NCBI GenBank assembly: GCA_963715495.1
Contig: OY970247.1
Span: 2,132,219-2,196,218 of the forward strand
From: an uncultured Solirubrobacterales bacterium
Lineage (GTDB): Bacteria; Actinomycetota; Thermoleophilia; Solirubrobacterales; Solirubrobacteraceae
Length of the DNA stretch: 64,000 nt
Reading direction: 5' to 3'
A model generated the notes under the pieces. It was given only the letters and a program-made list of their open reading frames with translations, ran no database searches and was not told the DNA's origin. This document shows, piece by piece, positions 47,592-64,000 of this stretch. A program made the translations under genes and the position numbers. Each line of letters begins with the position of its first letter. Within the stretch, counting starts at the first letter, position 1.

Positions 47592-49166
47592 TCAGCGCTC
47601 GGCCGCCGGGCAGACGATGCGAAAGTCGCAGATTGAACAGGCCGCCTTCGACGGGGTCGGCTCGAATCGCTGGCCCATGATGCCCTCGCCGACCTCGAGC
47701 ACGGTCGCGGTCACTCGCTCCTCGTCGGTGTCTCCCGGCAGCGTCACCTTGAGATCGTCGAGCACGTAGTAGTACGCCCTGCCCGCCGCCTCCAGCTCCC
47801 ACGACTCGCGCGCCGCCAGCGCGTACAGCGACAGCTGGACGTCGTCCCGCAGCTGCTCCGCCGTCTTGGGACGGGATGTCTTGTAGTCGATCAGCTCATA
47901 CCTTTCGCCCTGGTCCGCGTCCTGCCCGCGCCCGCGTGCAGCCGGTAGGCGGTCGACGCGGTCCACGCGCCCGCGCAGATGGTGCGGTCCGATTCGGAAC
48001 GAGAACTGGCGCTCGAACCACACAAGCTCAGAGTCCTGGCCGTGCAGCCGCGCGTGGTAGCGCTCGAGCGCCACGCGCGCCTTCGTGCGCAGCTCGCGCT
48101 CGGACTCCCCGTCACGGAACCCGCCTCGCCGCCAGCACGTGTCAAGCAGGTCCAGCAGCTGCGCGAGCGTCTCCCCGCCCGCGGAGTGATAGCGCTCGAG
48201 CACCTGGTGCACGACGATCCCGAACCGCTGCCCCAGCGTCGGCTCGGTCGGGATGCGCAGCACCCGCGCGAACTTGTACCTCAGTGGACAGCTGCGGTAC
48301 GTCTCGATGTCCGATGCCGACAGCGCCAGCCCTCCGCCCTTGCGCGGCAGAAACGGTCCCAGCGACGGCTCCCCCCTGGGGGTGCTCGCGCGCGTGACGG
48401 CGGCCACCGAGCCGCCGTCCGCGGCCGAGCCGAGCTCGAGGAGTGTCTCCTCCAGCGGCGAGCTCTGCAGGATCTCGCGCTGCAGCGCGGTGCTCGCCGC
48501 CAGCAGTCGCGCGCTTACGTCCGCCAGTGAGTCCTCGACGCTCTGCCCCGCCGGGCGCTGCGCGAGCGCCGAGAGCTTGAGCAGCTCCAGATAGCGCACC
48601 ACACCGTGCGCGATGTCCATGTCGGTATCCAGCCGCAGCTCGCTCAGGCGCGCACCGATTCGCAGCACGTCTGCCAGCACATCCTCCTGCACGATCCGCT
48701 GCGTCGCCCGCAGCGCCTCGTCCGCGCCATCGGGCCCGTCCGGCCCCGATTGGCTTCCGCGGCCTTCGCGCTCGGCGCCCAGTGCCGCGCGCGCGAGCAG
48801 GTCCGGTCGGGCCGCGTCCAGCGCCGCAGTCGCGGCCCGATGCAGCTCGAGGAAGCGCTGAATCCGCTCGCGCGCCTCGGGCGGCACCTGTGGAGACTCG
48901 ATCGCCGACCCCAGCGCCGCAACCATGTCCAGCTTGCGCCGCCTCGCGATTTGGATCACGCGCGCGAGATCGACCTGACGCAGCTCGATCGGCGGCCGCG
49001 CCAGCGCGCGCACCACCGCCGAGGCGTCTCCCGGATCGGAGAGCAGCCGTGTCCACGCGACCACGTCTCTGACCTCCGCCCGCTCCATATCCGGCGGTGA
49101 GCGCCGTTCGCGTTCGGGCTCCGCGCTCACCGGCGCGAGCAGATCCTTATCTGGCGTTGTCGGCAC
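47592..49166 (-). CDS. Helicase-less UvrD-2B-like region plus RecB/AddB-type PD-(D/E)XK nuclease with four Cys; possibly a remnant; start may be ATG 49088
   Basis: LSASDIETYRSCPLRYKF, LRGRVDRVD, IDYKTS, QLSLY, CSICDFRIVC; no Walker A/B motifs. Confidence 0.75.
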   Translation of the reverse strand: MPTTPDKDLLAPVSAEPERERRSPPDMERAEVRDVVAWTRLLSDPGDASAVVRALARPPIELRQVDLARVIQIARRRKLDMVAALGSAIESPQVPPEARERIQRFLELHRAATAALDAARPDLLARAALGAEREGRGSQSGPDGPDGADEALRATQRIVQEDVLADVLRIGARLSELRLDTDMDIAHGVVRYLELLKLSALAQRPAGQSVEDSLADVSARLLAASTALQREILQSSPLEETLLELGSAADGGSVAAVTRASTPRGEPSLGPFLPRKGGGLALSASDIETYRSCPLRYKFARVLRIPTEPTLGQRFGIVVHQVLERYHSAGGETLAQLLDLLDTCWRRGGFRDGESERELRTKARVALERYHARLHGQDSELVWFERQFSFRIGPHHLRGRVDRVDRLPAARGRGQDADQGERYELIDYKTSRPKTAEQLRDDVQLSLYALAARESWELEAAGRAYYYVLDDLKVTLPGDTDEERVTATVLEVGEGIMGQRFEPTPSKAACSICDFRIVCPAAER

Positions 49167-49177
49167 GCTCCTAGGAT

Positions 49178-50347
49178 ATGTCCATGGCCGTTACGCGCGC
49201 GATCGACTGGGACACGGCTCAGCGAGTCGGCGAGCTGATCGCCGGCTCCCCTCCCTACGGCGGCGTCCTCGGCCGGTCTGTGCAGCCGCTTGCACACGAC
49301 TTCGCGCGGCGCGTCAGCGCCTACACCGGCTTGAAGCTACCCGCTGAGCTGCCGCCCTTGGAGATGGTCGATCGGCCGGGCTGGATCGCCGCGAACCTGC
49401 AGACGATGCGACCTCTGCTGGATCCACTGCTCGAGCGCCTCAGCGGCGAGAGCGAGCCCGGCGCCGAGCACACCGGCGAGCAGGGCGGCGTCGTGAGCGC
49501 CCTCGGAGGTCTGCTGTCGGGCCCACTGCGCACCGTGTCCGGCCATCTGCTCGGCGCCCAGCTGGGTGGGGTGACGGGCATGCTGTCCCAGCGCGTGCTC
49601 GGCCAGTACGACCTCTCCCTGCTCGACGCCTCAGCGCCGTCGCGCCTGCTGCTGCTCGCGCCGAACCTCGCCGCGGCCGCCGGCAACCTGGGGATCGACC
49701 GCGACGAACTGATCGCCTGGGTGGCGATCCATGAGATCACCCACGCCGTGCAGTTCTCCGGCGCGCCGTGGCTGCGTGACCATCTCGGAGGAATGCTCCG
49801 CGAGCTGCTCGACGGGCTGCAGATCGGGCCCGCCGGGGGATCTGCGGACGAGGACTCGACCGAGGACGGCGGCTCCTCCTGGCTGCCTGACCCGCGCGAG
49901 CTGCTCGACCGCGCGCGCGACGGTGAGCTGCGAGTCCTGATCGATCGCGCCCGCCACGGCGAACTGCTGCGGATCACGCTCGGTGAGGATCGTTGGCAGC
50001 TGGTCGAGCGCATGCAGTCGGCGATGTCCCTGATCGAGGGTCACGCCGAGCACACGATGGACGCGGTCGGCGTCGAGGTGCTGCCTTCGCTGCCACGCCT
50101 GCGCGCCGCGATGACCAGACGGCGACAGTCCCATCGCGGGCTGCTCTGGCAGGTGCTGGAGCGGCTGCTGGGGCTGGAGCTGAAGATGCGCCAGTACGAG
50201 GTCGGACGAGGCTTCTGCGACGCGGTCGTCGATGCGGGCGGCCCTGAGACGCTCGCCGTGGCGTGGCGCTCGCCCCAGGAGCTGCCCACCGCGGCGGAGC
50301 TGGCCGAGCCCGCGCTCTGGCTGCAGCGCATCCGCGCCCCAGCTTGA
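49178..50347 (+). CDS. Zinc-dependent metalloprotease (zincin-2/DUF2342-like)
   Basis: VLGQYD, WVAIHEITHAVQF, MSLIEGHAEHTMD, KMRQYE.G..F. Confidence 0.85.
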   Translation: MSMAVTRAIDWDTAQRVGELIAGSPPYGGVLGRSVQPLAHDFARRVSAYTGLKLPAELPPLEMVDRPGWIAANLQTMRPLLDPLLERLSGESEPGAEHTGEQGGVVSALGGLLSGPLRTVSGHLLGAQLGGVTGMLSQRVLGQYDLSLLDASAPSRLLLLAPNLAAAAGNLGIDRDELIAWVAIHEITHAVQFSGAPWLRDHLGGMLRELLDGLQIGPAGGSADEDSTEDGGSSWLPDPRELLDRARDGELRVLIDRARHGELLRITLGEDRWQLVERMQSAMSLIEGHAEHTMDAVGVEVLPSLPRLRAAMTRRRQSHRGLLWQVLERLLGLELKMRQYEVGRGFCDAVVDAGGPETLAVAWRSPQELPTAAELAEPALWLQRIRAPA

Positions 50348-50355
50348 CGCGAACG

Positions 50356-50369
50356 CGAACGCATGTTCC
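50356..50369. promoter_or_regulatory. Candidate Gram-positive LexA (SOS) box
   Basis: CGAAC-GCAT-GTTCC fits CGAACRNRYGTTYC. Confidence 0.35.
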
Positions 50370-50464
50370 TGATGTTACAAGCGTGCCGCCGAAAATGCCG
50401 CTTCTTCACAGGGATTTCACCGGATCCGAGTATCCGCGTGTAACGATCTCTGTGGATCGGGTTA

Positions 50465-50478
50465 CAAACACGTGTTCG
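50465..50478. promoter_or_regulatory. Candidate Gram-positive LexA (SOS) box
   Basis: CAAAC-ACGT-GTTCG, one mismatch to CGAAC-N4-GTTCG. Confidence 0.35.
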
Positions 50479-50560
50479 GTGCTAACGTCGGTATCGAACC
50501 TCGAGCAAGCAAACCCGCACCTCCTCGCACAGGCGAGGAAGAAGAGGAGACCCCCTCCAG

Positions 50561-51070
50561 ATGCCAACTGCCAACACGACCTCCCCCCGCAGCCCCAAAA
50601 CGGGCGCGAAATCAGCCGCAAAAGCCAAAACCGCCCCTCGAGCCTCGAGCGCCAACGCGCGTAGCCGTAGCGCCACACAGACCAAGTCGACCCACGCAAA
50701 GGGCGCACGCACGCGGGCTGTCCATCAGACCGAGTCGGCCGTCCGTCAAGCCGAAACCGCCACGCGCGAGACCGCCGGCGTCTTCGGCGACTACGCCGAG
50801 CGCGCCGTCCTGATCCCCGTCGGCGCGGCTCTGATCGCCCGCGAGCGGGTGGTCTCGGGCGTGAACGACACGATCTCGAGCTATTCGAGCACCTCCAAGG
50901 CCCAGGCGCAACTGCGCAAGTTCGAGCGCCGCGGCAACACCGCTCGCAAGCGTCTGGAGCGTGAAGTTCGCAAAGCACGCACGAGCGTCGAGCGCGAGCT
51001 GCGCAAGCGCCGTCAGGACGGCGCCGAGCTCGCAGACCGTCTCCAGGGGCGCATCCAGAGCCTGGTCTAA
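50561..51070 (+). CDS. Basic coiled-coil protein (HBHA/phasin-like)
   Basis: GAGGAG RBS, Lys/Ala/Arg/Ser-rich N-terminus, amphipathic helical C-terminus. Confidence 0.65.
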   Translation: MPTANTTSPRSPKTGAKSAAKAKTAPRASSANARSRSATQTKSTHAKGARTRAVHQTESAVRQAETATRETAGVFGDYAERAVLIPVGAALIARERVVSGVNDTISSYSSTSKAQAQLRKFERRGNTARKRLEREVRKARTSVERELRKRRQDGAELADRLQGRIQSLV

Positions 51071-51196
51071 GTCCACTCCCCCAGCTTCCCCCGCCCCGGA
51101 CCGAGGAGAGCCGGGGACACCGCCGCCGAAGGCGGTGGTCGGGACAGTCTGCCGGCCTCATATTCCGCCGGTGGAAGGTAGGACCCTCTCCTCCCT

Positions 51197-51231
51197 AGCC
51201 CTCGGAGCGACCCCCGCTCCGAGGGCTTTTT
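51197..51231 (+). terminator. Intrinsic terminator
   Basis: AGCCCTCGGAGCG-acccc-CGCTCCGAGGGCT followed by TTTT. Confidence 0.85.
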
Positions 51232-51536
51232 CGTGGAAGAGCGTATTTGTCTCAAATCGCCTGTTCTGTTTCGGAGAAATGTTTCTGACTACACGAGCCC
51301 TATGACTTCGGTAAAAGCCCTGGAAAATCGGCTGGCACCTGACTCAGCGAGCATCATCCATATCTATGTAAGCGCCCCGCTAAAGTCAGCGCAATAGAAT
51401 TTGCTGTATATATTTTTGATGATCGTTTTAATGGTCGGCTTGACTGTAAGATCAGAGCAAGTACGCGATCTAGAGGGTGCTTCGCTTCCGGATCTACCGC
51501 AGACAACACTCTACAATCTCTGAAGAGGCTAGGCCA

Positions 51537-51746
51537 ATGTCAATCCAAGAGATTCAGCGTCAACAGGCAAAGGCGATGCCGCACGCGGACCTGAAGCCCT
51601 ACGCCGGACAGTGGGTTGCCCTCAGAGACGGCTATGTCGTGGCCAGGGATCTTGATAGCGTAGCCCTCCGCAACCAGCCTGAGGTCAAGGAGAGTGACAC
51701 CCTCATGCTCGTACCGGACCAAGACGTCAACGTTCTAATCCTCTAG
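51537..51746 (+). CDS. DUF5678-like small protein
   Basis: YAGQWVAL.DG.VVA motif; follows an AT-rich spacer. Confidence 0.65.
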   Translation: MSIQEIQRQQAKAMPHADLKPYAGQWVALRDGYVVARDLDSVALRNQPEVKESDTLMLVPDQDVNVLIL

Positions 51747-51752
51747 AGCGCC

Positions 51753-52157
51753 GTGCCCTCGGCGACACTCCCGTACTCCAACCCCTTCGGAACAGGGAGC
51801 CGTCCATATCTAGCCCTGACGCTCACAGGCGTCAACAGCACGTCGCACAGCATCGTGGGGCTTCTCGACACGGGTGCCGATATCACGGCGTTGCCGGTAG
51901 GGCACGCTGCGCTCATGGGCTACGGTCTCGAGCTGCTCGAGCAGACAACCATCGGGACCGCGGATGGCCCAGGCGTGGCGTTTCGTGCGATGCGGCAATC
52001 GACCGCCATCGTGGCCGGTTTGCCATCTGTGTCGATCAGCCTGCGGCCGATCTTTGTCCCCGGCGCCCAGACGCCGCTTTGGGGGCGCACCGATGTGATG
52101 CGCCCGTTCAAGGTGCTTTTCGACGATACGGACGAAGCCTTCACGCTCCACTGGTAG
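51753..52157 (+). CDS. Single-domain retropepsin-like (clan AA) aspartyl protease
   Basis: LLDTGADIT catalytic motif, LWGR.D C-terminal motif. Confidence 0.8.
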   Translation: MPSATLPYSNPFGTGSRPYLALTLTGVNSTSHSIVGLLDTGADITALPVGHAALMGYGLELLEQTTIGTADGPGVAFRAMRQSTAIVAGLPSVSISLRPIFVPGAQTPLWGRTDVMRPFKVLFDDTDEAFTLHW

Positions 52158-52212
52158 CCAGTTCGTGGCCCCCTGCCGGTCGTTATGGAGGGACCGGCAA
52201 AGGTTTGCCACA

Positions 52213-53421
52213 ATGAGCGTCGTGACCGACAAGCAGCAGATCAGCAAGGCCCTGGAGGTTGTGATCGACCCCGAGCTGCGACGCTCGATCGTCGAGCTCG
52301 ACATGGTGCGCTCGATCGACGTCTCATCCAACGGCGTCGTCGACGTAACCGTCTCGCTGACCACGCCCGGCTGCCCGATCAAGGGCCACTTCCAGACCGC
52401 GGTCGCGCAGGCCGTCTCAGCGCTGGAGGGGGTGACGCACTGCAACGTGTACTTCGACGTGCTCGACGACACCCAGAAGGCCGCCCTGCAGCAGAAGCTC
52501 GGGCGCGGCAGCCTTCCCGACGGGGCGCTCGCACGGGTCGCCAATGTGCTGTGCGTCGGATCCGGCAAGGGCGGCGTCGGCAAGTCGACGCTGACCGCCA
52601 ATCTCGCCGCGGCGCTGGCCGCCGAAGGCAAGCACGTGGGCATACTCGACGCGGACGTCTGGGGCTACTCGATCCCGCGCATGTACGGGCTCGGATCCAC
52701 CCGCCCACCGGTGTCGGCAGAGCGCAAGATCCTCCCGCTGGAGGCACACGGCGTGAAGGTGATGTCGATCGGCTTCTTCGTCGCCGAGGATGCCGCCGTG
52801 GTCTGGCGCGGGCCGATGCTGCACAAGGCCCTCACCCAGTTCCTGCAGGACGTCGACTGGGGCGTTCTGGACCACCTGCTGATCGACCTGCCGCCAGGCA
52901 CCGGCGACGTCTCGATGACGCTCGCCCAGCTGCTCCCCCAAGCCCGGTTCGCAATCGTCACGACTCCCCAGCCGACCGCCCAGCGGGTCGCCCGGCGCGC
53001 CGCCGAGATGGCGCACAAGGTCTCGCTCGAGATCTGCGGGATCATCGAGAACATGTCCGGCTTCACCACGCCCTCCGGCGAGCGCTTTCAGATCTTCGGC
53101 GAGGGCGGCGGTCAGGAGCTCGCCGACGAGCTCGACGTGCCTTTGCTCGGTAAGGTTCCACTGACGATGCCCCTGCGCGAGCACGCCGATAACGGTGTTC
53201 CGCTCGTGATCGAGGACCCCGACGACCCCGCCTCCCAGGCGATCCGCCACGCCGCCCGCGGCCTGATCGCGATGGCCGCGCCGGCGACGCTACCGGTCCT
53301 GCCGACGCTGCCCATCCTCCCACTGGTTCAGGTCGCCGCCGGAGCGGCAATGGCGCCCGCCGCCGCTTCCGCGCCCGGAGCGGAGCGAAAACCTGCGGGC
53401 ATGTCGCTGCCGATGGCTTAG
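52213..53421 (+). CDS. mrp: Mrp/ApbC/NBP35 Fe-S cluster carrier ATPase with N-terminal MIP18/DUF59 domain
   Basis: DPELRRSIVEL, GSGKGGVGKST, DADVWGYS, VVWRGPML, DLPPGTGD, ENMS. Confidence 0.92.
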   Translation: MSVVTDKQQISKALEVVIDPELRRSIVELDMVRSIDVSSNGVVDVTVSLTTPGCPIKGHFQTAVAQAVSALEGVTHCNVYFDVLDDTQKAALQQKLGRGSLPDGALARVANVLCVGSGKGGVGKSTLTANLAAALAAEGKHVGILDADVWGYSIPRMYGLGSTRPPVSAERKILPLEAHGVKVMSIGFFVAEDAAVVWRGPMLHKALTQFLQDVDWGVLDHLLIDLPPGTGDVSMTLAQLLPQARFAIVTTPQPTAQRVARRAAEMAHKVSLEICGIIENMSGFTTPSGERFQIFGEGGGQELADELDVPLLGKVPLTMPLREHADNGVPLVIEDPDDPASQAIRHAARGLIAMAAPATLPVLPTLPILPLVQVAAGAAMAPAAASAPGAERKPAGMSLPMA

Positions 53422-53500
53422 CCCGCGGTTGCGGGGGCCGATTTTTCCAGCGACATCCTGCTCGTTTGTCAAGCTCAACCTACTGAGAGGATCGTCGTAT

Positions 53501-55027
53501 ATGCCTGTACAGGACCAAGAAGAGGAGCAGCTGGCGACTCCACCGGACGGCGTAGTCGAGATCGACGAACGGCGTGCCAAGATGGAGCGGCTGCGCGCGG
53601 AAGGGATCAACCCGTATCCGCACGTAAGCCTGCCCGATCGCACCCTGATCGCCGAAGTACTCGCCGCGCACGATCCGTCACAGCTCGCGCAGGGTGAGCA
53701 CCCTGAGCTGCGCTACCTGCTTGCCGGCCGTCTGATCTCCAGACGCGGGCATGGCAAGACGTCGTTCCTGGACCTGCGCGACCTGTCGGGATCGATCCAG
53801 ATCGTCGTCCGTTACGACACGCTCGGCGAGGAGTCCTACGACCGGATCATGAGCCTCGACATCGGCGACATCGTCGACGTCGAGGGCTGCGTGTACAAGA
53901 CCCAGCGGGGGCAGCTGGCCCTGGAGGCGAGCGAGTGCACCCTCCTCACCAAGACGCTGCGCCCGCCGCCCGACAAGCATCACGGGCTCGGCGACACCGG
54001 CACGCGCTACCGCTACCGCGAGCTGGACCTGATCGCCAACGACGAGACGCGCGATCTGTTCGTGATGCGCGCGAGGATCGTGGCGGCGATCCGCGGCTGG
54101 CTTGACGAACGCAACTTCGTGGAAGTGGAAACCCCCGCTCTGCAGTCGCTCGCGGGCGGCGCCGGGTCCCGACCGTTCACGACGCACCACAACGCGCTCG
54201 ACCGCGACCTGTACCTGCGCATCTCGGTGGAGCTGTTCCTCAACCGCTGCATCGTGGGGGGCCTGGAGAACGTCTACGACATGGGCAAGGTATTCCGCAA
54301 CGAGGGCATCTCCCCGAAGCACAGCCCGGAGTTCACGATCATCGAGTTCATGATGGCCTACGCCGACTACTACGACGTGGCCACCGCCACCGAAGAGATG
54401 TTCAGAGACGTCGCTCAGCGGGTGCTCGGCAGGACCGAGATCCAGCGGGGCGGAGAGACGATCGACCTGGCCAAGCCGTGGCGGCGGATCACGATGCGCG
54501 AAGCGATGCTCGACGCCACCGGCATCGACTTCATGGGCGAGAACCGCGACGCCGTGACGGCTCAGATGAAGGAGGCGTTGCAGGAACGCATCCACCCGGC
54601 GACGACCTGGGCGGAGCTCGTGCTCGCCGTCTACAGCAAGCTGATCGAGCCGCACATCAACCAGCCGACGCATGTGTTCGACTTTCCCTTGGAGCCGTTC
54701 CCGATCACCAAGCGCCACGCCGAGCACCCCGAGCTGGCCGAGCACTTCGACGCGGTGATCGGCGGCATCGAGCTCGTCAGCGGCGACACCGAGCTGAACG
54801 ACCCCGTCGATCAGTGGCAGCGCTTCGTCGACCAGCGCAAGCGGCGCGCCCTCGACGACGGCGACGTGCCCCACCCCAACGACGAGGAGTACGCGCGCGC
54901 GATCGAGTACGGCTACTCGCCGACCGCCGGCGGCGGGATGGGCGTCGATCGGCTGATCATGATCCTCACCGAACGCGACACGCTGCGCGAGGTGATCCCG
55001 TTCCCGATCGTCAGGGAGCTGAGATGA
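53501..55027 (+). CDS. lysS: Class II lysyl-tRNA synthetase paralogue with anticodon OB-fold and a remodelled amino-acid pocket
   Basis: GRLISRRGHGKTSF, PDKHHGL, EVETP, RPFTTHHNALD, FRNEGIS, PEFT, ELNDP, G.G.DRL; pocket reads EFMMA, EHFD and ELVSGDTE. Confidence 0.88.
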   Translation: MPVQDQEEEQLATPPDGVVEIDERRAKMERLRAEGINPYPHVSLPDRTLIAEVLAAHDPSQLAQGEHPELRYLLAGRLISRRGHGKTSFLDLRDLSGSIQIVVRYDTLGEESYDRIMSLDIGDIVDVEGCVYKTQRGQLALEASECTLLTKTLRPPPDKHHGLGDTGTRYRYRELDLIANDETRDLFVMRARIVAAIRGWLDERNFVEVETPALQSLAGGAGSRPFTTHHNALDRDLYLRISVELFLNRCIVGGLENVYDMGKVFRNEGISPKHSPEFTIIEFMMAYADYYDVATATEEMFRDVAQRVLGRTEIQRGGETIDLAKPWRRITMREAMLDATGIDFMGENRDAVTAQMKEALQERIHPATTWAELVLAVYSKLIEPHINQPTHVFDFPLEPFPITKRHAEHPELAEHFDAVIGGIELVSGDTELNDPVDQWQRFVDQRKRRALDDGDVPHPNDEEYARAIEYGYSPTAGGGMGVDRLIMILTERDTLREVIPFPIVRELR

Positions 55028-56607
55028 GCTCCAACAAGCTCGACCTCGACCCCGGCGTGATCGCGTCTTGCCGGGCGGCCGCCACCCAGATCGCCGGGCA
55101 GGTCGCCGCGGAGATCGATGGCAAGACGACCGTCTCGGTCGAGCGCACGCTCGCGCGCCTGCTGGGCGTGGACGGCGCCAACGAGCTGGACGCGCCGCTG
55201 CCGAACGTGCTCGTCGACCATGTGCGCGACCGCGGCGAGCTGGGCAGCGGCATCGCCTACTGGCTGGGCAACGCGCTCCTGCACGACGAGTCGCCTGGCT
55301 CGCCGCAGCGGATCGCCGAGGCCGTCAACTCGGGTGAGCTCGACCTGTGCGCGCTGCCCCGTGCCCAGGACGACGCGATCCGCGAGCGGATAACCCACGA
55401 GTGCGATCGTCGGCTGGGCGAGATCGGCACGCGTATGGCCGAGCGCCGCGAGCTGCGCGAGCGTCTGGGCGAGCGCCCGCCGCCCCTGCGTTACGTGCTG
55501 ACCGCCACCGGCAACGTCTACGAGGACGTCGTCCATGGGCTCGCCGTGGCAGAGGCCGGCGGGGACATCATCGCGGTGATCAGATCAACCGCGCAGAGCC
55601 TGCTCGACTACGTGCCGTACGGCCCCACGACCGAGGGCTACGGCGGCACGTTCGCCACGCAGGCCAACTTCCGGATCATGCGCACCGCGCTGGACGAGTT
55701 CTCCGAGCAGCACGGCCGCTACGTGCGCCTGTCGAGCTTCTGCTCGGGCCTATGCATGCCGGAGATCGCCGCGATGGGCGCGATCGAGGGCTTTGACAAC
55801 ATGGTCAACGACGCGCTGTACGGGATCCTCTACCGCGACATCAACCCCGTCCGCGGCCTGATCGACCAGCGCGTCTCGCGGATGGTCAACGGCTGGTTCG
55901 GGGTCGTGATCAACACCGGCGAGGACAACTACCTGCGCACCGCCGACGCAATCGAGGCGGCGCCGTCGGTGACCGCCTCGCAGTTCATCAACCGCCAACT
56001 CGCCCTGGACTCGGGCGTGCTCGACGAGCAGATCGCGCTCGGCGACGCGTTCGAGATCGACCCCCCGATAGTCAACAGCCTGCTGTTCGAGTGGGCCCAG
56101 GCGCAGCTCACGCGGGAGCTGTTCCCAGACTGTCCGGTCAAGTACATGCCCCCCACGCGCCACATGGACGGCAACCTGTTCCGTACGCACGCCACCGACT
56201 CGCTGTTCAACCTCGTGACGGTCGCCACCGGACAGGGCATCCAGACGATCGGGGTGCCGACCGAGGGGATCTTCACACCCCACGTGCACGACCGCGTGAT
56301 CGGCCTGGAAAACGCCAACTACGTGTTCGACTCCGCCCGCGACCTCGGCGAGGAGATCGAGTTCAAGCGGGGCGGCATCGTCCAGACGCGCGCCCAGGAG
56401 GTGCTGGCCGGGGCCCACGAGCTGCTGCAGCGGATCGCCGACATCGGTCTGTTCGCGGCGCTCGGGGAGGGCGTGTTCGGCGATGTCCATCGCCACGCCG
56501 ACGACGGTCGCGGGATCGAGGGGATCGTCGAGACCGATGCCGGCTACCTCAACCCCGCGACCGAGCTGATGAGGGGAGCATCATCGTCGTCGCCGAGCCA
56601 TGTCTAG
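55024..56607 (+). CDS. kamD: Lysine 5,6-aminomutase alpha subunit (PLP-binding TIM barrel)
   Basis: TTVSVERT, ATGNVYED, IRSTAQSLLDYVP, SGLCMPEIA, NDALYGIL.RD, NTGEDNY, KYMPPT; ATGA overlap with the LysRS paralogue. Confidence 0.92.
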   Translation: MSSNKLDLDPGVIASCRAAATQIAGQVAAEIDGKTTVSVERTLARLLGVDGANELDAPLPNVLVDHVRDRGELGSGIAYWLGNALLHDESPGSPQRIAEAVNSGELDLCALPRAQDDAIRERITHECDRRLGEIGTRMAERRELRERLGERPPPLRYVLTATGNVYEDVVHGLAVAEAGGDIIAVIRSTAQSLLDYVPYGPTTEGYGGTFATQANFRIMRTALDEFSEQHGRYVRLSSFCSGLCMPEIAAMGAIEGFDNMVNDALYGILYRDINPVRGLIDQRVSRMVNGWFGVVINTGEDNYLRTADAIEAAPSVTASQFINRQLALDSGVLDEQIALGDAFEIDPPIVNSLLFEWAQAQLTRELFPDCPVKYMPPTRHMDGNLFRTHATDSLFNLVTVATGQGIQTIGVPTEGIFTPHVHDRVIGLENANYVFDSARDLGEEIEFKRGGIVQTRAQEVLAGAHELLQRIADIGLFAALGEGVFGDVHRHADDGRGIEGIVETDAGYLNPATELMRGASSSSPSHV

Positions 56608-57469
56608 TCCACCGCCCGCATCCTCCTCGCCGTCCGCATCCTCCTCGCCGTCTCCACCGTCGGCGCAGTCCGCGTCGCCCGTACAATCCGCGTCGCCCGA
56701 GCTCTCCGCAGGCTCCCGCCGAGAGGTCGACCTGGCGCAGGTCAAGCCCTATGCCGATCATCTCGGCGACGGGATCGTCCAGTTCAGCTTCACGCTGCCC
56801 GTCCCCTACGGCCTGGCGGCGCGTAAGGCCGCGCAGGAGCTGGCCGCGAAGATGGGCTTCGAGCACCCCGAGGTCGTCCACTATCAGCGCCTGACCGATG
56901 GATACACGTACTTCGTGATGTTCGGGCAGTGCACAAGCACGGTCGACTACGCGTCGCTTAGCGACGAGGGGTTCGACATCGAGTACATGAGCGAGGACGA
57001 GATCGAAGCGTTCGCGCACGAGCGCATCGGCCGCCCGGTCGTGGTCGTCGGCGCTGCCACCGGCACCGACACGCACAGCGTCGGCATCGACGCGATGCTC
57101 AACCTCAAGGGCTTCCACGGTCACCACGGCCTGGAGGGGTACAAGTCTTTTCAGACGCACAACCTCGGCAGCCAGGTGCCCAACAGCGTGCTCGTCTCCA
57201 GAGCGATCGACCTCGACGCCGACGCGATCCTCGTCTCCCAGACCGTCACCCAGCAGAACCTGCACATCTCAAACCTGACGGAACTCGTCGAGATCGTCGA
57301 AGCGGAGGGGCGGCGCCGGCAGCTGATCCTCACCTGCGGAGGCCCACGCGTATCCAACGAGCTCGCCAAGGAGCTCGGCTACGACGCGGGGTTCTCAAAG
57401 GGAACCTACCCGCATCACGTGGCGAGCTTCATCGTGCGCGAGCTGGCCGCGCGGCTGGCGGACGAGTAG
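56600..57469 (+). CDS. kamE: Lysine 5,6-aminomutase beta subunit (B12-binding), with Ser/Pro-rich N-terminal extension
   Basis: KPYADHLGDGIVQFSFTLP, DTHSVG (DxHxxG), NLKG (PLP Lys), SQTVTQ, CGGPR, GYDAGF. Confidence 0.92.
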   Translation: MSSPPPASSSPSASSSPSPPSAQSASPVQSASPELSAGSRREVDLAQVKPYADHLGDGIVQFSFTLPVPYGLAARKAAQELAAKMGFEHPEVVHYQRLTDGYTYFVMFGQCTSTVDYASLSDEGFDIEYMSEDEIEAFAHERIGRPVVVVGAATGTDTHSVGIDAMLNLKGFHGHHGLEGYKSFQTHNLGSQVPNSVLVSRAIDLDADAILVSQTVTQQNLHISNLTELVEIVEAEGRRRQLILTCGGPRVSNELAKELGYDAGFSKGTYPHHVASFIVRELAARLADE

Positions 57470-57471
57470 TA

Positions 57472-58482
57472 GTGCTGTCGGAGCTGATCGCCTCGGCGCG
57501 GAGGGTGGCACTTGTCGGTCTGGCGAAGAACACCGGCAAGACTGAGACGCTCGCGGCGATCCTGGCGGAGTACGCACAGGCTGGGCGAATCGTGGGAGTC
57601 ACCTCGATCGGCCGCGACGGCGAGGAGCACGACGTGATCGACGCGCGCATCGATAAGCCGCGGATCAATCTTCAGGCGGGCAGCCTCGTGGCGAGCACGG
57701 GGGCGCTCCTACGGTCGAGCGGCGTCGCGCACGAGCGGCTGGCACAGACCGGGATGAGGACCCCACTTGGTGAAGTCGTCGTCGCCAGGCTCTCGGAGCG
57801 GGGGGCCGTCGAAGTCGCCGGCCCGAGCGCAGCCGAGGACGTACTCGCCGTGAGTGAAACGATGGCGGGCCTCGGCGCCGAGCAGGTGCTGATCGACGGT
57901 GCGATCGACCGCCGCGCGGCCTCCTCGCCTGAGGTCGCCGACGGCCTCGTGATGGCCACGGGCGCGATCCTCGACGAGGACATCGAGCGAGTCGTGGCGG
58001 CTACGAAGGACGCGGTCGATCTGGTCAGGCTGCCCGAAGCCGAGGACCGCGTGCCCGAGGACGAGCGGGTCCTGCTCGCACGGCAGCTGGTCCTGAACAG
58101 CGAGCCCGCGGAGATAGCCGCGCTGCTGCGAGAGCACCCGCGAGCGAGCACGCTCGTTGCAGACGGAGCTCTCGGCGAGCGCTTTCTCGAGGGCCTGCTG
58201 ACGGCTCGAACCGAGCGGGCCGGACGCACGCTGAAGATCGTCGGCGGCGACCCGACGAAGGTGTTCCTATCGCGCCGTGGCCCAGACTGGTATCGGCGTC
58301 AGGGGCTTGAAATCGAGGTCCTGCGCACGATCGAACTGAAGGCGCTCACGGTCAACCCTGTGGCGCCGCAATCGCACCGCTTTGATTCAAAGCGGCTACG
58401 CGGGCTGCTCGAGACGGCCATCCCGGACATACCCGTCCTGGACGTGCTCGACCAGAGCTACCACGCCACGCCCGGGTCCTGA
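57472..58482 (+). CDS. KamB-like accessory protein of the 5,6-aminomutase (P-loop-like)
   Basis: LVGLAKNTGKTETL, TSIGRDGE, TPLGEV, VEVAGP, IDGAIDRRA..SP.VADG..ATGA; this family sits next to kamDE in lysine-fermentation clusters. Confidence 0.72.
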   Translation: MLSELIASARRVALVGLAKNTGKTETLAAILAEYAQAGRIVGVTSIGRDGEEHDVIDARIDKPRINLQAGSLVASTGALLRSSGVAHERLAQTGMRTPLGEVVVARLSERGAVEVAGPSAAEDVLAVSETMAGLGAEQVLIDGAIDRRAASSPEVADGLVMATGAILDEDIERVVAATKDAVDLVRLPEAEDRVPEDERVLLARQLVLNSEPAEIAALLREHPRASTLVADGALGERFLEGLLTARTERAGRTLKIVGGDPTKVFLSRRGPDWYRRQGLEIEVLRTIELKALTVNPVAPQSHRFDSKRLRGLLETAIPDIPVLDVLDQSYHATPGS

Positions 58483-58536
58483 GCCGGTCCGATCCGGCGT
58501 TGCACGTGCGGGCGCGGGGGCCGTCGACGTGAAGAC

Positions 58537-58806
58537 CTACTTGTTGGCGTTGGCGAAGTAGTCGGAGTTGATCTGGGAAAACTTCTGCCACTCCTCCGGG
58601 AGCTGGTCCTCGGCGAAGCACGCGTCCACCGGACACGCCTCGACACAGGCGTCGCAGTCGATGCACTCCTCGGGGTCGATGTAGAGCATCTCGGCGGCGT
58701 CGTATCCAGGCTCGTCGGGCGTCGGGTGGATGCAGTCGACAGGACACACCTCGACGCAGGAGTTGTCCTTGGTGCCGATGCACGGCTCGGCGATCACGTA
58801 GGCCAT
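58537..58806 (-). CDS. fdxA: Dicluster (7Fe-type) ferredoxin
   Basis: YVIAEPC..KD.SC.EVCPVDCI; IDPEECIDCDACVEACPV. Confidence 0.92.
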   Translation of the reverse strand: MAYVIAEPCIGTKDNSCVEVCPVDCIHPTPDEPGYDAAEMLYIDPEECIDCDACVEACPVDACFAEDQLPEEWQKFSQINSDYFANANK

Positions 58807-58867
58807 TCGCTTCTTTCTTGGGTTGGTTTTGCGGGGTCTTCCTCGGGAGACGCATATTGTACGAAGC

Positions 58868-59758
58868 ATGCTGCTCCTTACCGGCGCGACCGGCCAGGTG
58901 GGCTCGGCGCTGCTGCGCCGGCTCGTGGACGACGGGTGCGACGTGCGCTGCCTGGTCCGCGACCCGCGCCGGCTGGGAACCCAGCGCGTGCGTGTGCAGA
59001 TCGCGCTCGGAGACCTGACCGACCCGCCTTCGTTTCGCAACGCGCTGCGGGGCGTGGACACGGTCGTGCACCTGGCCGCGTCGATCCGCGACCAGCCCGG
59101 CGGCTCGATCGAGGAGCTGAACGGAATCGCCACCTGGCGCATCGTGCAAGCCGCGCAGCGAGCCGGGGTGGGGCGGTTTGTGTTCTTCTCGACGCTCGAC
59201 GCCTCCTCCCATCACCGCACGCGCTTTCACCGGGCGAAGGCGCTCGCGGAGCAGGCTGTGCGCGAGGCGGACCTGGACTGGACGGTGTTCGCCCCCTCGA
59301 TCGTCTACACCCCCGGTGACGCGTGGCTGACGTTGCTGGAACGTCTGGCGCTGCTGCCCCTGATGCCGATGTCGGGAATGGGGCGTGCGCGCTACCAACC
59401 GATCTGGGCCGAGGACGCCGCCGCGTGCGTGATGGCGGCCCTACGCTCGCCGGCAAGCGAACGCCAACGGTACGAGCTCGCGGGCCCCGAGACGCTGACG
59501 CATACGGAGATCGTCAGGCTCGTGCTCGACTCGCTCGATCGCCCGCGTCCGCTGGTGAAGCTACCCACGCCGATCGTCTCGCGGGCGCTGCGCCTACTGG
59601 AGGCGACGATCGGCGTCGAGCGCGCGTTTGCGACCTGGGACGAGGCCGAGCTGATGGAGTGCTCGATGCTCGCACGGTCCGGTGCCGGCGACGCGGAACA
59701 CCTCGGGGTGACGCCCAAGGCGATGCGGGCCGTCTTGGATCCCGCCCACCCCGGCTGA
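58868..59758 (+). CDS. Atypical SDR / NAD(P)-binding protein (NDUFA9/NmrA-like)
   Basis: TGATGQVG, VVHLAAS, FHRAKALAE, YQPIWAED. Confidence 0.82.
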   Translation: MLLLTGATGQVGSALLRRLVDDGCDVRCLVRDPRRLGTQRVRVQIALGDLTDPPSFRNALRGVDTVVHLAASIRDQPGGSIEELNGIATWRIVQAAQRAGVGRFVFFSTLDASSHHRTRFHRAKALAEQAVREADLDWTVFAPSIVYTPGDAWLTLLERLALLPLMPMSGMGRARYQPIWAEDAAACVMAALRSPASERQRYELAGPETLTHTEIVRLVLDSLDRPRPLVKLPTPIVSRALRLLEATIGVERAFATWDEAELMECSMLARSGAGDAEHLGVTPKAMRAVLDPAHPG

Positions 59759-59857
59759 TCAGCGCTCCCTCACTCTCGACCTTCTGTTCGACCACCGCTG
59801 AAGCAGCCTCACGTACACCCACCGTAAACGCAGGCGTCCGGGCAGCGGCCGCTGGGA

Positions 59858-61301
59858 TCAGGCCGCCGTGCCCAGCGCGGGCGCCCGCCGCCCAGCCCAG
59901 GGCAATGCCTCTTCCAGCTGCGAGGCGAGCGCGAGCAGCGCGGCCTCGCCGGCTGGGCGTCCGACGATCTGCACGGCCAACGGCAGCCCGTCGTCGCCCT
60001 CGAACAGCGGCAGCGAGATCCCGGGCTGCCCGGTGGCGTTGAAGACGGGGGTAAACGGCGTGAACAGGCCGGAGCGAGTGAATGTGGACATCGGTTCGGG
60101 CGCGGCCGTGTCGAGCGTGCCCAACGGCAGCGGGCGCTCGGCCAGCGCCGGCGTGAGCAGCGCGTCGTAGGGGGACAGGAAGGAGACCAGGCGCCGCGTG
60201 TAGCGCCTGCAGCTGCACGACAGCCGCCATGCCCTGCACGGCGCCCAGTTTCTGGATCATCGAGTAGATCGCCCAGCTCATCGGCTCCATGTCCTCCTCG
60301 GCCGGCTCGCGCCCGGCGACGGCGCCGGAGTAGGCGATCGACAGCGCGATGTGGTTGGAGAACACCGCACCGAACAGCTCCTGCAAGCCCTCGATCCGCC
60401 ACGGCGGATCGACCTCCACGACCTCGTGCCCGAGCGAGCGCAGCAGCTCGGCCGCGTCGGCGACGGCCCGCGCCGCCATCGGATCGACGACGGCCTCGGC
60501 GATCGGCGCCAGCGTGGTGGCGGCGATCCGCAGCCTGCCGGGAGCCCCCGCGGCGCTCTGCGCGAACGGCTCGCTCGGCGGCGGCGCCCAGGTGGCGTCG
60601 CCCGGCTCATAGCCCGCGAGCACGTCGAGGATCGCAGCGGTGTCGGCGACGGTGCGCGTGAGCATGCCGTCGATCCCCAGCGACGAGTCGCCGAGTTCCG
60701 GTGCGGCGGAGATGCGCCCGCGACTGGGCTTGAGCCCCACCAGCCCGCAGCAGGCGGCGGGGATGCGGATCGAGCCGCCGCCGTCGTTGCCGTGGGCCAC
60801 CGGCACCATGCCAGCGGCCACTGCCGCCGCCGCGCCGCCGGAGGAGCCGCCGGGGGTGCGTCCGAGATCCCACGGGTTGCGCGTCGGCCCGAAGATACGC
60901 GCCTCGCTCGTCGGCAGGATGCCGTACTCGGGCAGCGTGGTCGTGCCCACGATCACGAACCCCGCGTCGCTTCAGGCGCCGCGTGACGTTGTGGTCGTAG
61001 TCGCACATGTTCTCGGCCATCAGCGCGCAGCCGTAGGTGAGGCGCAGCCCCTGCACGGGTCGGTTGTTCTTGATCGCGATCGGCACGCCCGCGAACGGGC
61101 GCTCATCGCCCGGGTCGATCTGCTCGGCTGTGGCCAGCGCGCCGCTCGGCGTCGATGTCGACGAAGGCGTTGAGCGCCGGGTTCAGCTCCTCGATCCGCT
61201 CCAGGGAGATCTCGACGAGCTCCCGTGCGGAGATCTCCCCTGAGCGCACCATCCCCGCCAGCTCGGTGGCGGGTGCGAAACATCAGATCGCCGTCGGACA
61301 C
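59858..61301 (-). pseudogene. Amidase-signature family protein with four +1 frameshifts as sequenced
   Basis: GGAGGAGG RBS and GTG 61301; PIAIK, GGSSGG, GNDGGGSIRIPA, FTPVFNATGQP distributed over five frame segments, with breaks at about 61279, 61143, 60970 and 60204. Confidence 0.8.
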
Positions 61302-62832: not shown

Positions 62833-63432
62833 TCATGCGTGGGTCGGCTCCGGCTCGCCCTTGAACAGCCACGGGTTGCGCTGGCCGATGACGGAGCCGC
62901 GGAAGCGCTTTTGCCCTCCGTACACGACCCAGGTCGTGTCGACCGCGCCGTAGCACTCCTGCACGCGAAGGAGGTCCGGGTGTTCGTGTGCATAGTGAAG
63001 GTGCGTCAGACCGGCGTCGTAGGCGCCCGCGAGCAGGTGGCGCGCGACGACGGGCTTGGACGGCTCGTCAATGATCGTGGGCCAGCGCGTCAGGTCGGTG
63101 TAGCCGCGGGTCGCCGACACGATGCCGAGACTCGTCGGATCGCTGACATCGGTGCGGATCAGCAGCGCCAGCTCCTTGGTGGGATAGAGGAACGTATCGA
63201 TGACGAAAACCTCGTCGTAGTAGCGCTCCGTCACGAGGTGGACATGCAGGTGCGCGCTGCACTGCACGAGGAAGGTGTCCGTCCGACCGCGGACCTGCTC
63301 GATCCCGTCCAGCAGGTCTTCGACCAGAACGACGTCAAAGGAGGTGATCCCCTGAAACTCGAGATAATGGAGCAGGGCGTTCTCATGACAGGTGCCGGAC
63401 GGTCCGAGCGTGATGAATGTCGGGCGAGTCAT
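62833..63432 (-). CDS. Prephenate dehydratase/decarboxylase-like (PBP2-fold) protein without ACT domain
   Basis: TLGPSGT.H, YDAGLT, W.VYG resemble the PheA catalytic domain and BacA; ATGA overlap with the chorismate mutase. Confidence 0.5.
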   Translation of the reverse strand: MTRPTFITLGPSGTCHENALLHYLEFQGITSFDVVLVEDLLDGIEQVRGRTDTFLVQCSAHLHVHLVTERYYDEVFVIDTFLYPTKELALLIRTDVSDPTSLGIVSATRGYTDLTRWPTIIDEPSKPVVARHLLAGAYDAGLTHLHYAHEHPDLLRVQECYGAVDTTWVVYGGQKRFRGSVIGQRNPWLFKGEPEPTHA

Positions 63433-63734
63433 GTCTCGCTCCCCTGTGGCGTGGCGGACGGTGCGCCGATGAGCTCATCCTCCATTCTGCACGTGGCGTC
63501 GATCAGCAGCTCGAAAAGATCGGCCGTGAAATCCGGGGGCAGCCGGACCTCGGCGCCGCGGGCGAGATAGCGTGCCCGCACCTCGGCGACGCGATCGGGT
63601 TGCATCATCGGGATCTCGTGCGTGCGCTTGTAGCCTGCGACTTCCCGGCAAATCTGAAAGCGCTCGCCGAGCAGCCGCGCGATCTCCTCGTCGAGCACGT
63701 CCAGGCGGTGGCGGAAGGGCTCCAGGCCGTTCAT
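63429..63734 (-). CDS. AroQ chorismate mutase, PapB/CmlD-like (4-amino-4-deoxychorismate mutase-like)
   Basis: R..LD..D..I..L..ERF..C..V..YK...IPMMQPDR..CRMED; GGAGG RBS. Confidence 0.8.
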   Translation of the reverse strand: MNGLEPFRHRLDVLDEEIARLLGERFQICREVAGYKRTHEIPMMQPDRVAEVRARYLARGAEVRLPPDFTADLFELLIDATCRMEDELIGAPSATPQGSET

Positions 63735-63886
63735 GTCCTGCCGCCTCCCAGCGGCTGAATGCTCGACGCGCCGGGCGGCGGCTCGACCCGAGGCGGCTCG
63801 ACCCCGGACGCGCTCTGACGCGATGTGCTCTGACGCGGCGCGCTCTGAGTCACACCTCGCTGCTCGATCGTCGACATGAGACTCAC
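63731..63886 (-). CDS. Putative 51-aa repetitive mini-ORF bridging two genes
   Basis: GTG overlaps the upstream TGA and its TGA overlaps the chorismate mutase ATG; QSAPR/QSTSR/QSASG and VEPPR/VEPPP repeats. Confidence 0.3.
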   Translation of the reverse strand: MSLMSTIEQRGVTQSAPRQSTSRQSASGVEPPRVEPPPGASSIQPLGGGRT

Positions 63887-64000
63887 GATAGAACCCGCCG
63901 CATCCGCGGGCCGAGCGACTCAAAGCCGTTGCCCAGGTAGAAGGCCTCGGTCGCCCCGAAGCGGGCGAAACGCTCCCGCGGCAGCCCTACCTCAACGCGC
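63883..64000 (-). CDS. 3' end of an unidentified upstream gene (partial)
   Basis: Only frame open to the window edge: RVEVGLPRERFARFGATEAFYLGNGFESLGPRMRRVLS*. Confidence 0.6.
   Translation of the reverse strand, partial: RVEVGLPRERFARFGATEAFYLGNGFESLGPRMRRVLS

Follow-up and report, generated by a model that had tools for sequence, protein, structure and literature searches.

Gene content of the operon

The stretch of DNA analysed here, called the window throughout, comprises 64,000 nucleotides (positions 2,132,219 to 2,196,218, forward strand) of contig OY970247.1 from an uncultured Solirubrobacterales bacterium, whose assembly (GCA_963715495.1) is one 3.17-Mb contig with about 68% G+C. At window positions 53501-58482 it carries a tight run of four genes, in which a paralogue of lysyl-tRNA synthetase (LysRS) is followed by both subunits of a lysine 5,6-aminomutase, an enzyme using vitamin B12 and pyridoxal phosphate (PLP), and by a subunit of the aminomutase reactivase. 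The four genes and their two neighbours are:

53501..55027, plus strand: LysRS paralogue, 'type A', with an oligonucleotide-binding (OB) anticodon domain and a class II core; TIGR00499, 498.5 bits
55024..56607, plus strand: KamD, lysine 5,6-aminomutase alpha subunit (PLP/TIM-barrel); NF052384, 763 bits
56600..57469, plus strand: KamE, lysine 5,6-aminomutase beta subunit (B12-binding, PLP-lysine); NF052385, 353 bits; PF16554, PF02310
57472..58482, plus strand: KamB, aminomutase reactivase subunit; NF052386, 278 bits
52213..53421, plus strand: Mrp/ApbC iron-sulphur carrier ATPase; PF10609, 304 bits, and PF01883
58537..58863, minus strand: ferredoxin gene with Fer4 family matches, convergent with KamB

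All four proteins of the run score above the curated cut-offs of their families, which are 427.6 bits for TIGR00499, 600 for NF052384, 280 for NF052385 and 210 for NF052386. When the junctions are read from the sequence, the stop codon of the LysRS paralogue and the start codon of KamD share the letters ATGA (55024-55027), the KamE ATG at 56600 and the KamD stop TAG at 56605-56607 delimit an 8-nucleotide overlap (56600-56607), and the KamE stop (57467-57469) is followed, after a gap of 2 nucleotides, by the GTG of KamB at 57472. An earlier sequence-only reading had described just this run, with both overlaps and the gap, and had placed it immediately downstream of an Mrp/ApbC gene; direct reading gives the same coordinates, the Mrp/ApbC gene ending at 53421. 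A Shine-Dalgarno-like GAGAGG lies 8-9 nucleotides upstream of the LysRS paralogue ATG at 53501, and the 79-nucleotide spacer between Mrp/ApbC and this gene has a weak terminator-like hairpin after the Mrp stop, which is not above shuffle expectation. The convergent ferredoxin gene marks the 3' end of the operon. The LysRS paralogue, kamD, kamE and kamB form one module, here termed module A.

In 33 related loci, too, Mrp/ApbC precedes the LysRS paralogue, at distances of 0.1-4 kb and with inserted genes in some. Because the distance varies and other genes intervene in several genomes, we judge this to be synteny only, i.e. Mrp/ApbC is probably a conserved upstream neighbour outside the module and not a functional partner.

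KamE opens with a Ser/Pro-rich stretch of about 45 residues (window 56600-56737) that lies outside the family model, which aligns from residue 47, and that is missing in the second KamE of this genome. It may be a linker-like extension or an untranslated spacer; since these first residues are unmatched by the model, the start of KamE is uncertain and could be further downstream.

A second module and a conserved linkage

The genome encodes three class II LysRS above the equivalog cut-off of TIGR00499. The housekeeping lysS (528 bits) sits in a clpC-lysS-dus block, a conserved actinobacterial housekeeping position (the dus-like gene was assigned by eye), so the window copy, which reaches 498.1 bits in the whole-genome profile search, is not the sole LysRS; whether a separate canonical lysS exists was a question that the sequence-only reading had raised. 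The third LysRS ('type B', 461 bits) is found 138 kb further on, directly 3' of a second kamD-kamE pair (KamD 749 bits, KamE 341 bits), with the reading frames of kamE and LysRS overlapping. This second set of genes, termed module B, lies outside the window:

G000:C1:2321699-2329231 (L006:5697-13238; G000:C1 is the contig of this genome): lysA-like and arginyl-tRNA synthetase (ArgRS)-like genes on the minus strand, kamD-kamE-type B LysRS on the plus strand

Thus the order is LysRS-kamD-kamE-kamB in module A and kamD-kamE-LysRS, without KamB, in module B.

The same linkage extends well beyond this genome. Among 48 actinobacterial KamD loci that were fetched, with gene calls made under a filter on third-position G+C (GC3), LysRS adjoins KamD in 43, and this in three gene orders: LysRS-KamD-KamE(-KamB) in 38, KamD-KamE(-KamB)-LysRS in four and LysRS-KamB-KamD-KamE in one. 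One further locus ends at a contig edge, and four (two Conexibacter, one Thermoleophilaceae and one Micromonospora) have no LysRS within 7 kb. The related loci come from metagenome-assembled genomes (MAGs) of Solirubrobacterales. None of 32 classical loci from Bacillota and Bacteroidota, fetched for comparison, has a LysRS near KamD, and they show the classical kdd-kamA-kamBCDE arrangement where examined. The sequence-only reading knew of no aminoacyl-tRNA synthetase in classical kam operons, which agrees with these 32 loci, and the synteny that it proposed to look for is present in dozens of species.

A class-wide sample of 401 genomes, in which at most three candidates were scored per genome, adds a family, f7, with KamD in 61 of its 63 genomes. 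There KamD sits with Kdd, and the genomes mostly have a single LysRS, which was not adjacent to KamD in the cases checked. In five related genomes, by comparison, a housekeeping LysRS is accompanied by one or two linked paralogues; in one of the five the type A paralogue has decayed to a fragment at the place where the type B cluster abuts. In the KamD tree (all trees in this study were made by FastTree only), the Solirubrobacterales copies group apart from classical KamD, and module B is an old duplicate, with later rearrangements that preserved the adjacency. With 43 of 48 loci showing this adjacency and the genome itself repeating it in module B, the LysRS-kamDE arrangement goes far beyond what chance would give. 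The LysRS paralogue is abundant in soil metagenomes; each of the best 120 database clusters shares at least 81% identity with it.

The aminomutase and the missing fermentation pathway

Both mutase subunits appear intact. KamE has the DxHxxG motif as DTHSVG, and a Lys read directly 11 residues past the His corresponds to what we take to be the His133/Lys144 spacing. KamD aligns over residues 2-517 with 8t0v, the top solved lysine 5,6-aminomutase alpha chain, and retains R184, Y263, R268, D298, N299 and K370 (1XRS numbering), with the roles of PLP-site residues taken from PMC3958899. The reactivase pair is incomplete, KamB being present (278 bits) and KamC, its usual partner, having no NF052383 match and no tblastn match in the genome.

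Across the whole genome, the KamA family has no TIGR00238 match and no tblastn match with Caloranaerobacter or Thermotalea genes, and Kdd likewise has no NF052381 match and no tblastn match with the genes of these two genera; the Kdd model matched no control genome, yet it scored the Caloranaerobacter Kdd. A single BKACE-family gene lies about 2 Mb from the module. Since KamA, Kdd and KamC were not found, the classical lysine fermentation pathway is not present in this genome (Kal was not searched for), and ordinary catabolism as an explanation of kamDE was rejected on these grounds. The earlier observation that kamA, kdd, kce and kal are lacking in the window thus extends, for the genes searched, to the genome.

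As no beta-lysine would be made without KamA, the reaction of KamDE here is likely that from alpha-lysine to 2,5-diaminohexanoate, by analogy with the studied enzyme, for which Table 1 of PMC3958899 gives kcat/Km values of 630 M^-1 s^-1 with D-lysine, 480 with L-beta-lysine and 0.4 with L-lysine. Thirty-eight group-specific positions set the actinobacterial KamD clade apart from classical KamD; several of them, including 1XRS 235, 236, 267, 302, 338 and 367, are next to active-site residues, and a shifted substrate preference of this clade is possible.

A rebuilt side-chain pocket in a full-length synthetase

The pocket of the LysRS paralogues was mapped onto E. coli LysU (1E1O) via a HMMER alignment, and LysU numbering is used. 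All 36 type A and 6 type B copies have the changes N271S, Y280M, R412H, E414D, N424S, F426D, S427T and L474G, and the paralogues retain G216, E240, R262, E264, H270, F274, E278, E421, E428 and R480. Among these, the motif 2/3 and Mg/ATP residues (R262, E264, H270, F274, E421 and R480) are kept in all type A and type B copies except at one frameshifted locus. Six housekeeping copies of the same genomes have a canonical pocket, as does the LysU chain compared here. At the three most telling positions, 85 full-length canonical representatives, which were picked for their canonical pocket, have Y280, N424 and F/Y426, and the 42 linked paralogues have M, S and D. The full signature is confined to the clade of types A and B and absent from the remaining sequences in a set of 150 representatives at 50% identity, and 32 LysRS genes on IMG/VR viral contigs all have the canonical pocket.

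Residues 280 and 426 presumably touch the lysine side chain, as in the structures of LysU and human LysRS, and from the LysU structures we take Glu240, Glu278 and Glu428 to anchor the charged groups of lysine, with Glu428 pairing with the epsilon-amine. Of the 109 alignment columns that the 85 canonical LysRS conserve, the paralogues depart from 25, most of them in the catalytic domain. In E. coli LysRS, Y280F and F426W alter the discrimination of thialysine, towards rejection, as stated in PMC12546413 with reference to Ataide 2007, which documents that positions 280 and 426 help to determine how analogues are discriminated.

The OB domain has changed little. In all five paralogues compared, 17 of its 20 conserved columns are unchanged, including R77, R82, F89 and Q100, and the window copy (PF01336, 47.9 bits) has one change among the conserved OB columns, E138Q. 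Residues such as F89 and Q100 presumably contact U35 of the anticodon, and because the conserved OB residues are unchanged, tRNA-Lys is the likely acceptor. The window paralogue is 44-49% identical to the housekeeping copies of its own and related genomes, and types A and B are about 61% identical to each other. Compared over the same genome pairs, the paralogues share 74-83% identity, as against 69-75% for the housekeeping LysRS, so the paralogues are under at least equal constraint.

The retained anticodon domain bears on a further possible role, i.e. an EpmA-like transfer of isomerised lysine to elongation factor P (EF-P) or to another protein, a lipid or a cell-wall acceptor. EpmA is itself a LysRS paralogue that works with a lysine aminomutase, and the EF-P of this genome has a KPGKGG loop with a modifiable Lys position. 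The paralogue, however, keeps an anticodon domain together with its RNA-contact residues, whereas EpmA lacks one, as the sequence-only reading had rightly remarked; it scores 186 bits with the EpmA model TIGR00462 against a cut-off of 287 and thus falls outside that family. Moreover, the genome has no KamA/EpmB family gene, no match to the MprF C-terminal domain (PF09924) and none to the FemAB family. Lipid and cell-wall acceptors were rejected for want of an MprF-type or FemAB gene, and an EpmA-like role as a whole appears highly improbable. With the LysX model NF002821 the paralogue reaches 440 bits against a cut-off of 742, and only the LysRS part matches.

Relatives with similar and with other pockets

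In a LysRS tree of 108 rows, types A and B form one clade (support 100) within a superclade of LysRS paralogues (support 99) that is sister to the housekeeping LysRS of Solirubrobacterales. The relatives of the A/B clade differ in pocket and in genomic context:

Type C, family f2: pocket F280, A412, G424, G426, D428; among housekeeping genes
P0129: other pocket; near argininosuccinate synthase and lyase and AstA/AstB genes
P0136: other pocket; near ThiS/ThiF-type genes, with a tRNA directly upstream
P0134: other pocket, core-only protein; tRNA-Lys directly downstream
Basal A/B branch (G377 and metagenome contig P0131): S271, L280, H412, D414, S424, D426, E428; adjoins a DABA-type class-III aminotransferase
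Two phage-like contigs, 43-50% identical to type A: M280, H412, D414, S424, D426; phage genes
Conexibacter relative: I280, W412, A424, A426; in a lysC-asd operon beside tRNA-Lys(UUU)

The tRNA preceding P0136 is a tRNA(UCU) (L104:3592-3664, the gene following at 3682-5124). A tRNA-Lys(UUU) follows both the core-only P0134 (L147, gene 6001-7155, tRNA 7226-7296) and the Conexibacter paralogue (L188, gene 1859-3349, tRNA 3366-3438). The phage-like homologues are located at L102:8001-9449 and L143:3668-5023, on contigs that both have many small open reading frames (ORFs) and one of which carries tail-collar, Acb1 and Thy1 genes. No KamD was found in the G377 genome, nor in the parts of the phage-like contigs that were read. 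That phage LysRS in general might share this pocket was rejected in view of the 32 canonical LysRS on IMG/VR contigs, and a single-sequence pattern scan with a phage-like homologue found nothing.

Possible exclusion or activation of the lysine isomer

Because the pocket changes are real and invariant, a functional tie between paralogue and mutase is well supported, and it would hold in either direction, i.e. whether the isomer is accepted or excluded by the synthetase. All functional statements made here are inferred from sequence.

We tentatively prefer, as somewhat short of an even chance, the interpretation that the paralogue is an analogue-proof LysRS which charges lysine and is synthesised alongside a mutase yielding 2,5-diaminohexanoate. 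KamDE with KamB would isomerise alpha-lysine, which by analogy with the studied enzyme would be D-lysine and possibly L-lysine, to 2,5-diaminohexanoate. Being an alpha-amino acid that resembles lysine and ornithine, this product could enter a canonical LysRS site. The co-translated paralogue would still charge tRNA-Lys with L-lysine, and its side-chain pocket, rebuilt at positions of analogue discrimination, would keep lysine charging faithful while the mutase runs. The paralogue would thus be an immunity or fidelity synthetase. For this clade we infer the substrate and product of KamDE, the use of lysine by the paralogue and the threat of the isomer to the housekeeping enzyme.

Several observations argue for such a role. 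In the predicted proteins, the residues for ATP and for the alpha group are kept, as are Glu240, Glu278 and Glu428 and the OB-domain residues for tRNA-Lys, and the paralogues are under strong constraint. No private tRNA, riboswitch or transferase is present in the modules: ARAGORN and Rfam (E <= 1) returned neither a tRNA nor an Rfam match for window 49000-60000 and the surroundings of module B, save for one sRNA at chance level, and family scans found no transferase gene between Mrp and the convergent ferredoxin gene. Control of either module by a riboswitch or T-box was rejected on the same Rfam result, and so was a dedicated tRNA adjoining the module, the genome having two ordinary tRNA-Lys genes only. 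Nearly the same pocket occurs beside an aminotransferase in G377 and on the phage-like contigs, and for near-identical pockets in such different contexts lysine as the one common substrate would be the simplest explanation. In addition, the Conexibacter relative lies in a lysC-asd/tRNA-Lys context, and module B is next to lysA. Taken together, the relatives tip the balance towards an analogue-proof enzyme that charges lysine. The distribution fits as well: KamDE on the alpha route carries an extra LysRS, and KamDE on the beta route, with Kdd, does not. Intermediates of the beta-lysine route are beta-amino acids. Activated 2,5-diamino acids cyclise readily to six-membered lactams, and canonical LysRS edits ornithine by cyclisation. 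Extra copies of a target synthetase in producer clusters are an established form of self-resistance, of which the LysRS for cladosporin is an example given in PMC10320164. The arrangement here is of the same kind, with an extra copy beside the kam genes and the housekeeping copy elsewhere.

Other points weigh against an analogue-proof LysRS. By the alignment, Tyr280, Asn424 and the always aromatic residue 426 are all replaced, and a new Asp is placed inside the pocket; this is a larger change than is usual for resistant synthetases, which mostly keep their substrate contacts. Sister subfamilies with other pockets, in amino-acid-tailoring contexts and sometimes with an adjacent tRNA, look like cases in which non-canonical amino acids are activated. 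The accumulation of 2,5-diaminohexanoate, its toxicity and its acceptance by the housekeeping LysRS are presumed, and what the isomer is made for is left unexplained. Finally, the KamDE for which kinetics are tabulated in PMC3958899 is about 1500-fold better on D-lysine than on L-lysine.

Alternatively, the paralogue may adenylate the isomerised lysine made by KamDE, most likely 2,5-diaminohexanoate, and either load it on tRNA-Lys for a tRNA-dependent acceptor or release it as a six-membered lactam, in the manner of an ATP-dependent lactam synthetase that makes or clears such a compound. We regard this as a possible, if doubtful, explanation. It would account directly for a pocket in which Y280M, N424S and F426D are rebuilt around an intact ATP site and are invariant over 42 linked paralogues, and the new Asp, midway in the pocket, could pair with an amine that has moved from C6 to C5. 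The overlap of the LysRS stop with the KamD start, and an adjacency kept through three gene orders and a module duplication, also point this way, as do the group-specific positions of the actinobacterial KamD clade close to active-site residues and the superclade subfamilies in which other pockets occur near amino-acid-modifying genes, two of them with an adjacent tRNA. Precedents exist in EpmB/EpmA and PylB/PylS, which pair a mutase with a dedicated synthetase-like enzyme. However, with the tRNA-Lys anticodon residues unchanged and a private tRNA lacking, an isomer once loaded would be inserted at Lys codons unless intercepted, and the genome offers neither a FemAB or MprF domain nor, between Mrp and ferredoxin, a transferase gene. 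Esters and adenylates of 2,5-diamino acids cyclise readily, Glu428, the partner of the terminal amine of lysine, is retained, and nearly the same pocket is found without KamD (in G377 and, for the parts read, on the phage-like contigs). The sequence-only reading had proposed that the mutase makes an isomerised lysine which the paralogue adenylates and loads. The linkage and the invariant pocket uphold the tie between the two that it saw; as to its further step, activation of the product, the evidence fits lysine charging at least as well. An analogue-proof or immunity synthetase was not among the roles that it weighed.

A further alternative is an ordinary second LysRS, in the manner of LysS and LysU: a lysine-charging isoform with regulation of its own, the kamDE adjacency reflecting shared control by lysine supply and no handling of the mutase product. 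The paralogue indeed scores above the lysS equivalog cut-off, module B adjoins lysA, the Conexibacter relative lies in lysC-asd beside tRNA-Lys, and some single-copy LysRS already have S271, D414 or M280. The full set of changes, however, occurs only in the A/B clade among the 150 representatives and in none of the 32 virus-borne LysRS, the adjacency to kamDE survives rearrangements and duplication, and relatives in the class with KamDE and Kdd have no such copy. An ordinary second LysRS therefore seems unlikely.

ArgRS-like paralogues and a private tRNA

Besides a canonical ArgRS (397 bits), the genome has two divergent ArgRS-like paralogues (68 and 88 bits). One of them is the divergent neighbour of kamD in module B, with homologues beside KamD also in L042, L043, Conexibacter and Thermoleophilaceae. 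The other begins some 8 kb downstream of kamB, and immediately before it stands a 73-nucleotide type-I tRNA(UAA) with a short variable arm, a pair that is conserved in five related genomes. This tRNA heads an operon that reaches into the window:

Window 62833-63923, minus strand, on to G000:C1:2196616-2200645 (L138:6617-10646): private-tRNA operon
Window 63429-63923, minus strand: type II chorismate mutase, family match
Window 62833-63432, minus strand: 199-residue ORF, no family match

Its order is tRNA(UAA), the ArgRS-like gene (HIGH kept, 88 bits to argS), a fused PabA/PabB-type aminodeoxychorismate synthase (755 residues), GNAT, chorismate mutase and the 199-residue ORF. The operon looks like a dedicated tRNA plus synthetase-like system for a chorismate-derived amino acid and is probably a neighbouring system, separate from the kam module.

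Nevertheless, the ArgRS-like gene of module B, as the second of its kind, links the private-tRNA system to KamDE and thereby keeps a tRNA-loading role alive. In its broadest form, the rebuilt-pocket paralogues (the LysRS-derived ones, the ArgRS-like one of module B, or both) would load 2,5-diaminohexanoate on tRNA for tRNA-dependent biosynthesis or for insertion at UUA via tRNA(UAA), which we consider quite unlikely. Still less probable is a larger system in which the KamDE product would be placed on a dedicated tRNA by the ArgRS-like protein of module B or by the LysRS paralogue, and would serve a natural product or the UUA codon. Such a system would make sense of the ArgRS-like paralogues that adjoin KamD in module B, in the two loci L042 and L043 and in the two other taxa named above, as well as of the conserved ArgRS-like/tRNA(UAA) pair 8 kb from kamB. 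Codon usage could also be taken to favour it: in 1737 stringent ORFs TTA accounts for 51 of some 611,000 codons, which makes it the scarcest sense codon by far, roughly 17-fold below the next in a table of 21 codons, and the only UAA-anticodon tRNA that ARAGORN reports is the short-arm private one, with no long-arm tRNA-Leu(UAA) found. Yet the tRNA-bearing operon carries chorismate-pathway genes and not kam genes, it is far from the kam module in the related genome G403 and seemingly in G404 (different contigs), and no tRNA lies beside module B. The anticodon of the private tRNA is UAA in one genus and UGU in another, which argues against a fixed codon meaning. Finally, two of the eight TTA codons found among 85,828 orthologue codons stand at Leu-conserved columns and six at variable columns, with TTG or TCA neighbours and with Leu in some orthologues. 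These eight codons gave no support to sense-codon recoding at TTA. Charging of the private tRNA(UAA) by the LysRS paralogue was likewise set aside as unlikely, because the OB residues F89 and Q100, the presumed U35 contacts, are unchanged.

The two anticodons were read in orthologous private tRNAs, UGU at L136:10258-10330 (G341) and UAA at L138:10574-10646 (the present genome, G000), which share their acceptor stems and T arms and have nearly the same D arm. The anticodon of this tRNA seems free to change.

A Thermoleophilaceae MAG (L045:5190-11572) has an ArgRS-like gene, kamD, kamE and kamB followed by a PLP enzyme akin, below cut-offs, to the capreomycidine synthase VioD and the guanitoxin enzyme GntC. 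The appearance of this cluster is that of a short pathway to some non-canonical basic amino acid.

Relation to known systems

We regard the module as either a self-resistance synthetase or the pairing of a synthetase paralogue with an enzyme that modifies amino acids, and no paper describing it was found: a literature search, in which the best-ranked aminomutase papers were judged by title and abstract, returned none that links a 5,6-aminomutase or diaminohexanoate with lysyl-tRNA synthetase. Among its closest known counterparts is EpmB/EpmA (YjeK/PoxA-GenX), likewise a lysine aminomutase with a class II LysRS paralogue, the genes often being adjacent. EpmB, however, is a radical-SAM 2,3-aminomutase, whereas the mutase here is a B12/PLP 5,6-aminomutase, and EpmA has no anticodon domain and a lysine-like pocket for beta-lysine, whereas the paralogue here is full length and has a different pocket. 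The pyrrolysine cassette (pylB, pylS, pylT) similarly combines a lysine mutase making a methyl-ornithine with a dedicated class II synthetase; 2,5-diaminohexanoate is 5-methylornithine and the PylB product is 3-methylornithine. In contrast to that cassette, the module has no pylC/pylD-like genes and no dedicated tRNA beside it, and its synthetase is LysRS-derived (class IIb) and keeps the tRNA-Lys anticodon domain.

Self-resistance copies such as cladosporin LysRS and mupirocin IleRS2 share with the module a second synthetase beside the compound genes and a housekeeping copy elsewhere. The 'compound' here, however, would be a plain substrate isomer from a single enzyme, with resistance presumed; there are no exporter or tailoring genes, and the pocket itself is rebuilt rather than peripheral residues. 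With respect to the classical fermentation cluster (kamA, kdd, kce, kal, kamBCDE), KamD, KamE and KamB belong genuinely to their families and have intact cofactor sites, but KamA, Kdd and KamC were not found, KamD differs at its 38 group-specific positions, and the classical clusters examined (the 32 Bacillota/Bacteroidota loci and family f7) have no LysRS nearby. LysX, an MprF-LysRS fusion, and LysS/LysU are also additional class II LysRS copies in one genome; unlike with LysX, there is no MprF domain here, fused or elsewhere in the genome. LysS and LysU share a canonical pocket.

To our knowledge, EF-P beta-lysylation and pyrrolysine are the only cases in which a synthetase paralogue is coupled to an amino-acid mutase, and the LysRS paralogue with KamDE is a third synthetase-mutase pairing. 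Likewise, we know of no role of the B12/PLP 5,6-aminomutase other than anaerobic lysine fermentation, outside of which this module places it. If the paralogue is an analogue-proof LysRS, it would be a natural solution to the discrimination of lysine and ornithine analogues and would point to 2,5-diaminohexanoate as a metabolite or antimetabolite of physiological relevance in aerobic soil actinobacteria. If it activates the isomer, it would be a new natural enzyme for a non-canonical diamino acid, useful for genetic-code engineering, and UUA insertion via the private tRNA(UAA), if true, would give Actinomycetota a natural equivalent of the pyrrolysine system. Under either reading, the LysRS-derived superclade, with its several pocket types and contexts, is a candidate set for new amino-acid specificities.

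Further observations

Elsewhere on the contig, ARAGORN reports two odd tRNAs, a 93-nucleotide 'tRNA-Gly(acc)' at G000:C1:1972917-1973009 and a 96-nucleotide tRNA with a four-base anticodon (ggag) at 2697481-2697576. In the window, an amidase gene on the minus strand (59514-61086) is seemingly split over frames. In its ORF of 480 residues, only residues 1-209 match the family (profile positions 94-302) and the remainder reads out-of-frame, which would correspond to a pseudogene or to indel errors from long-read assembly.

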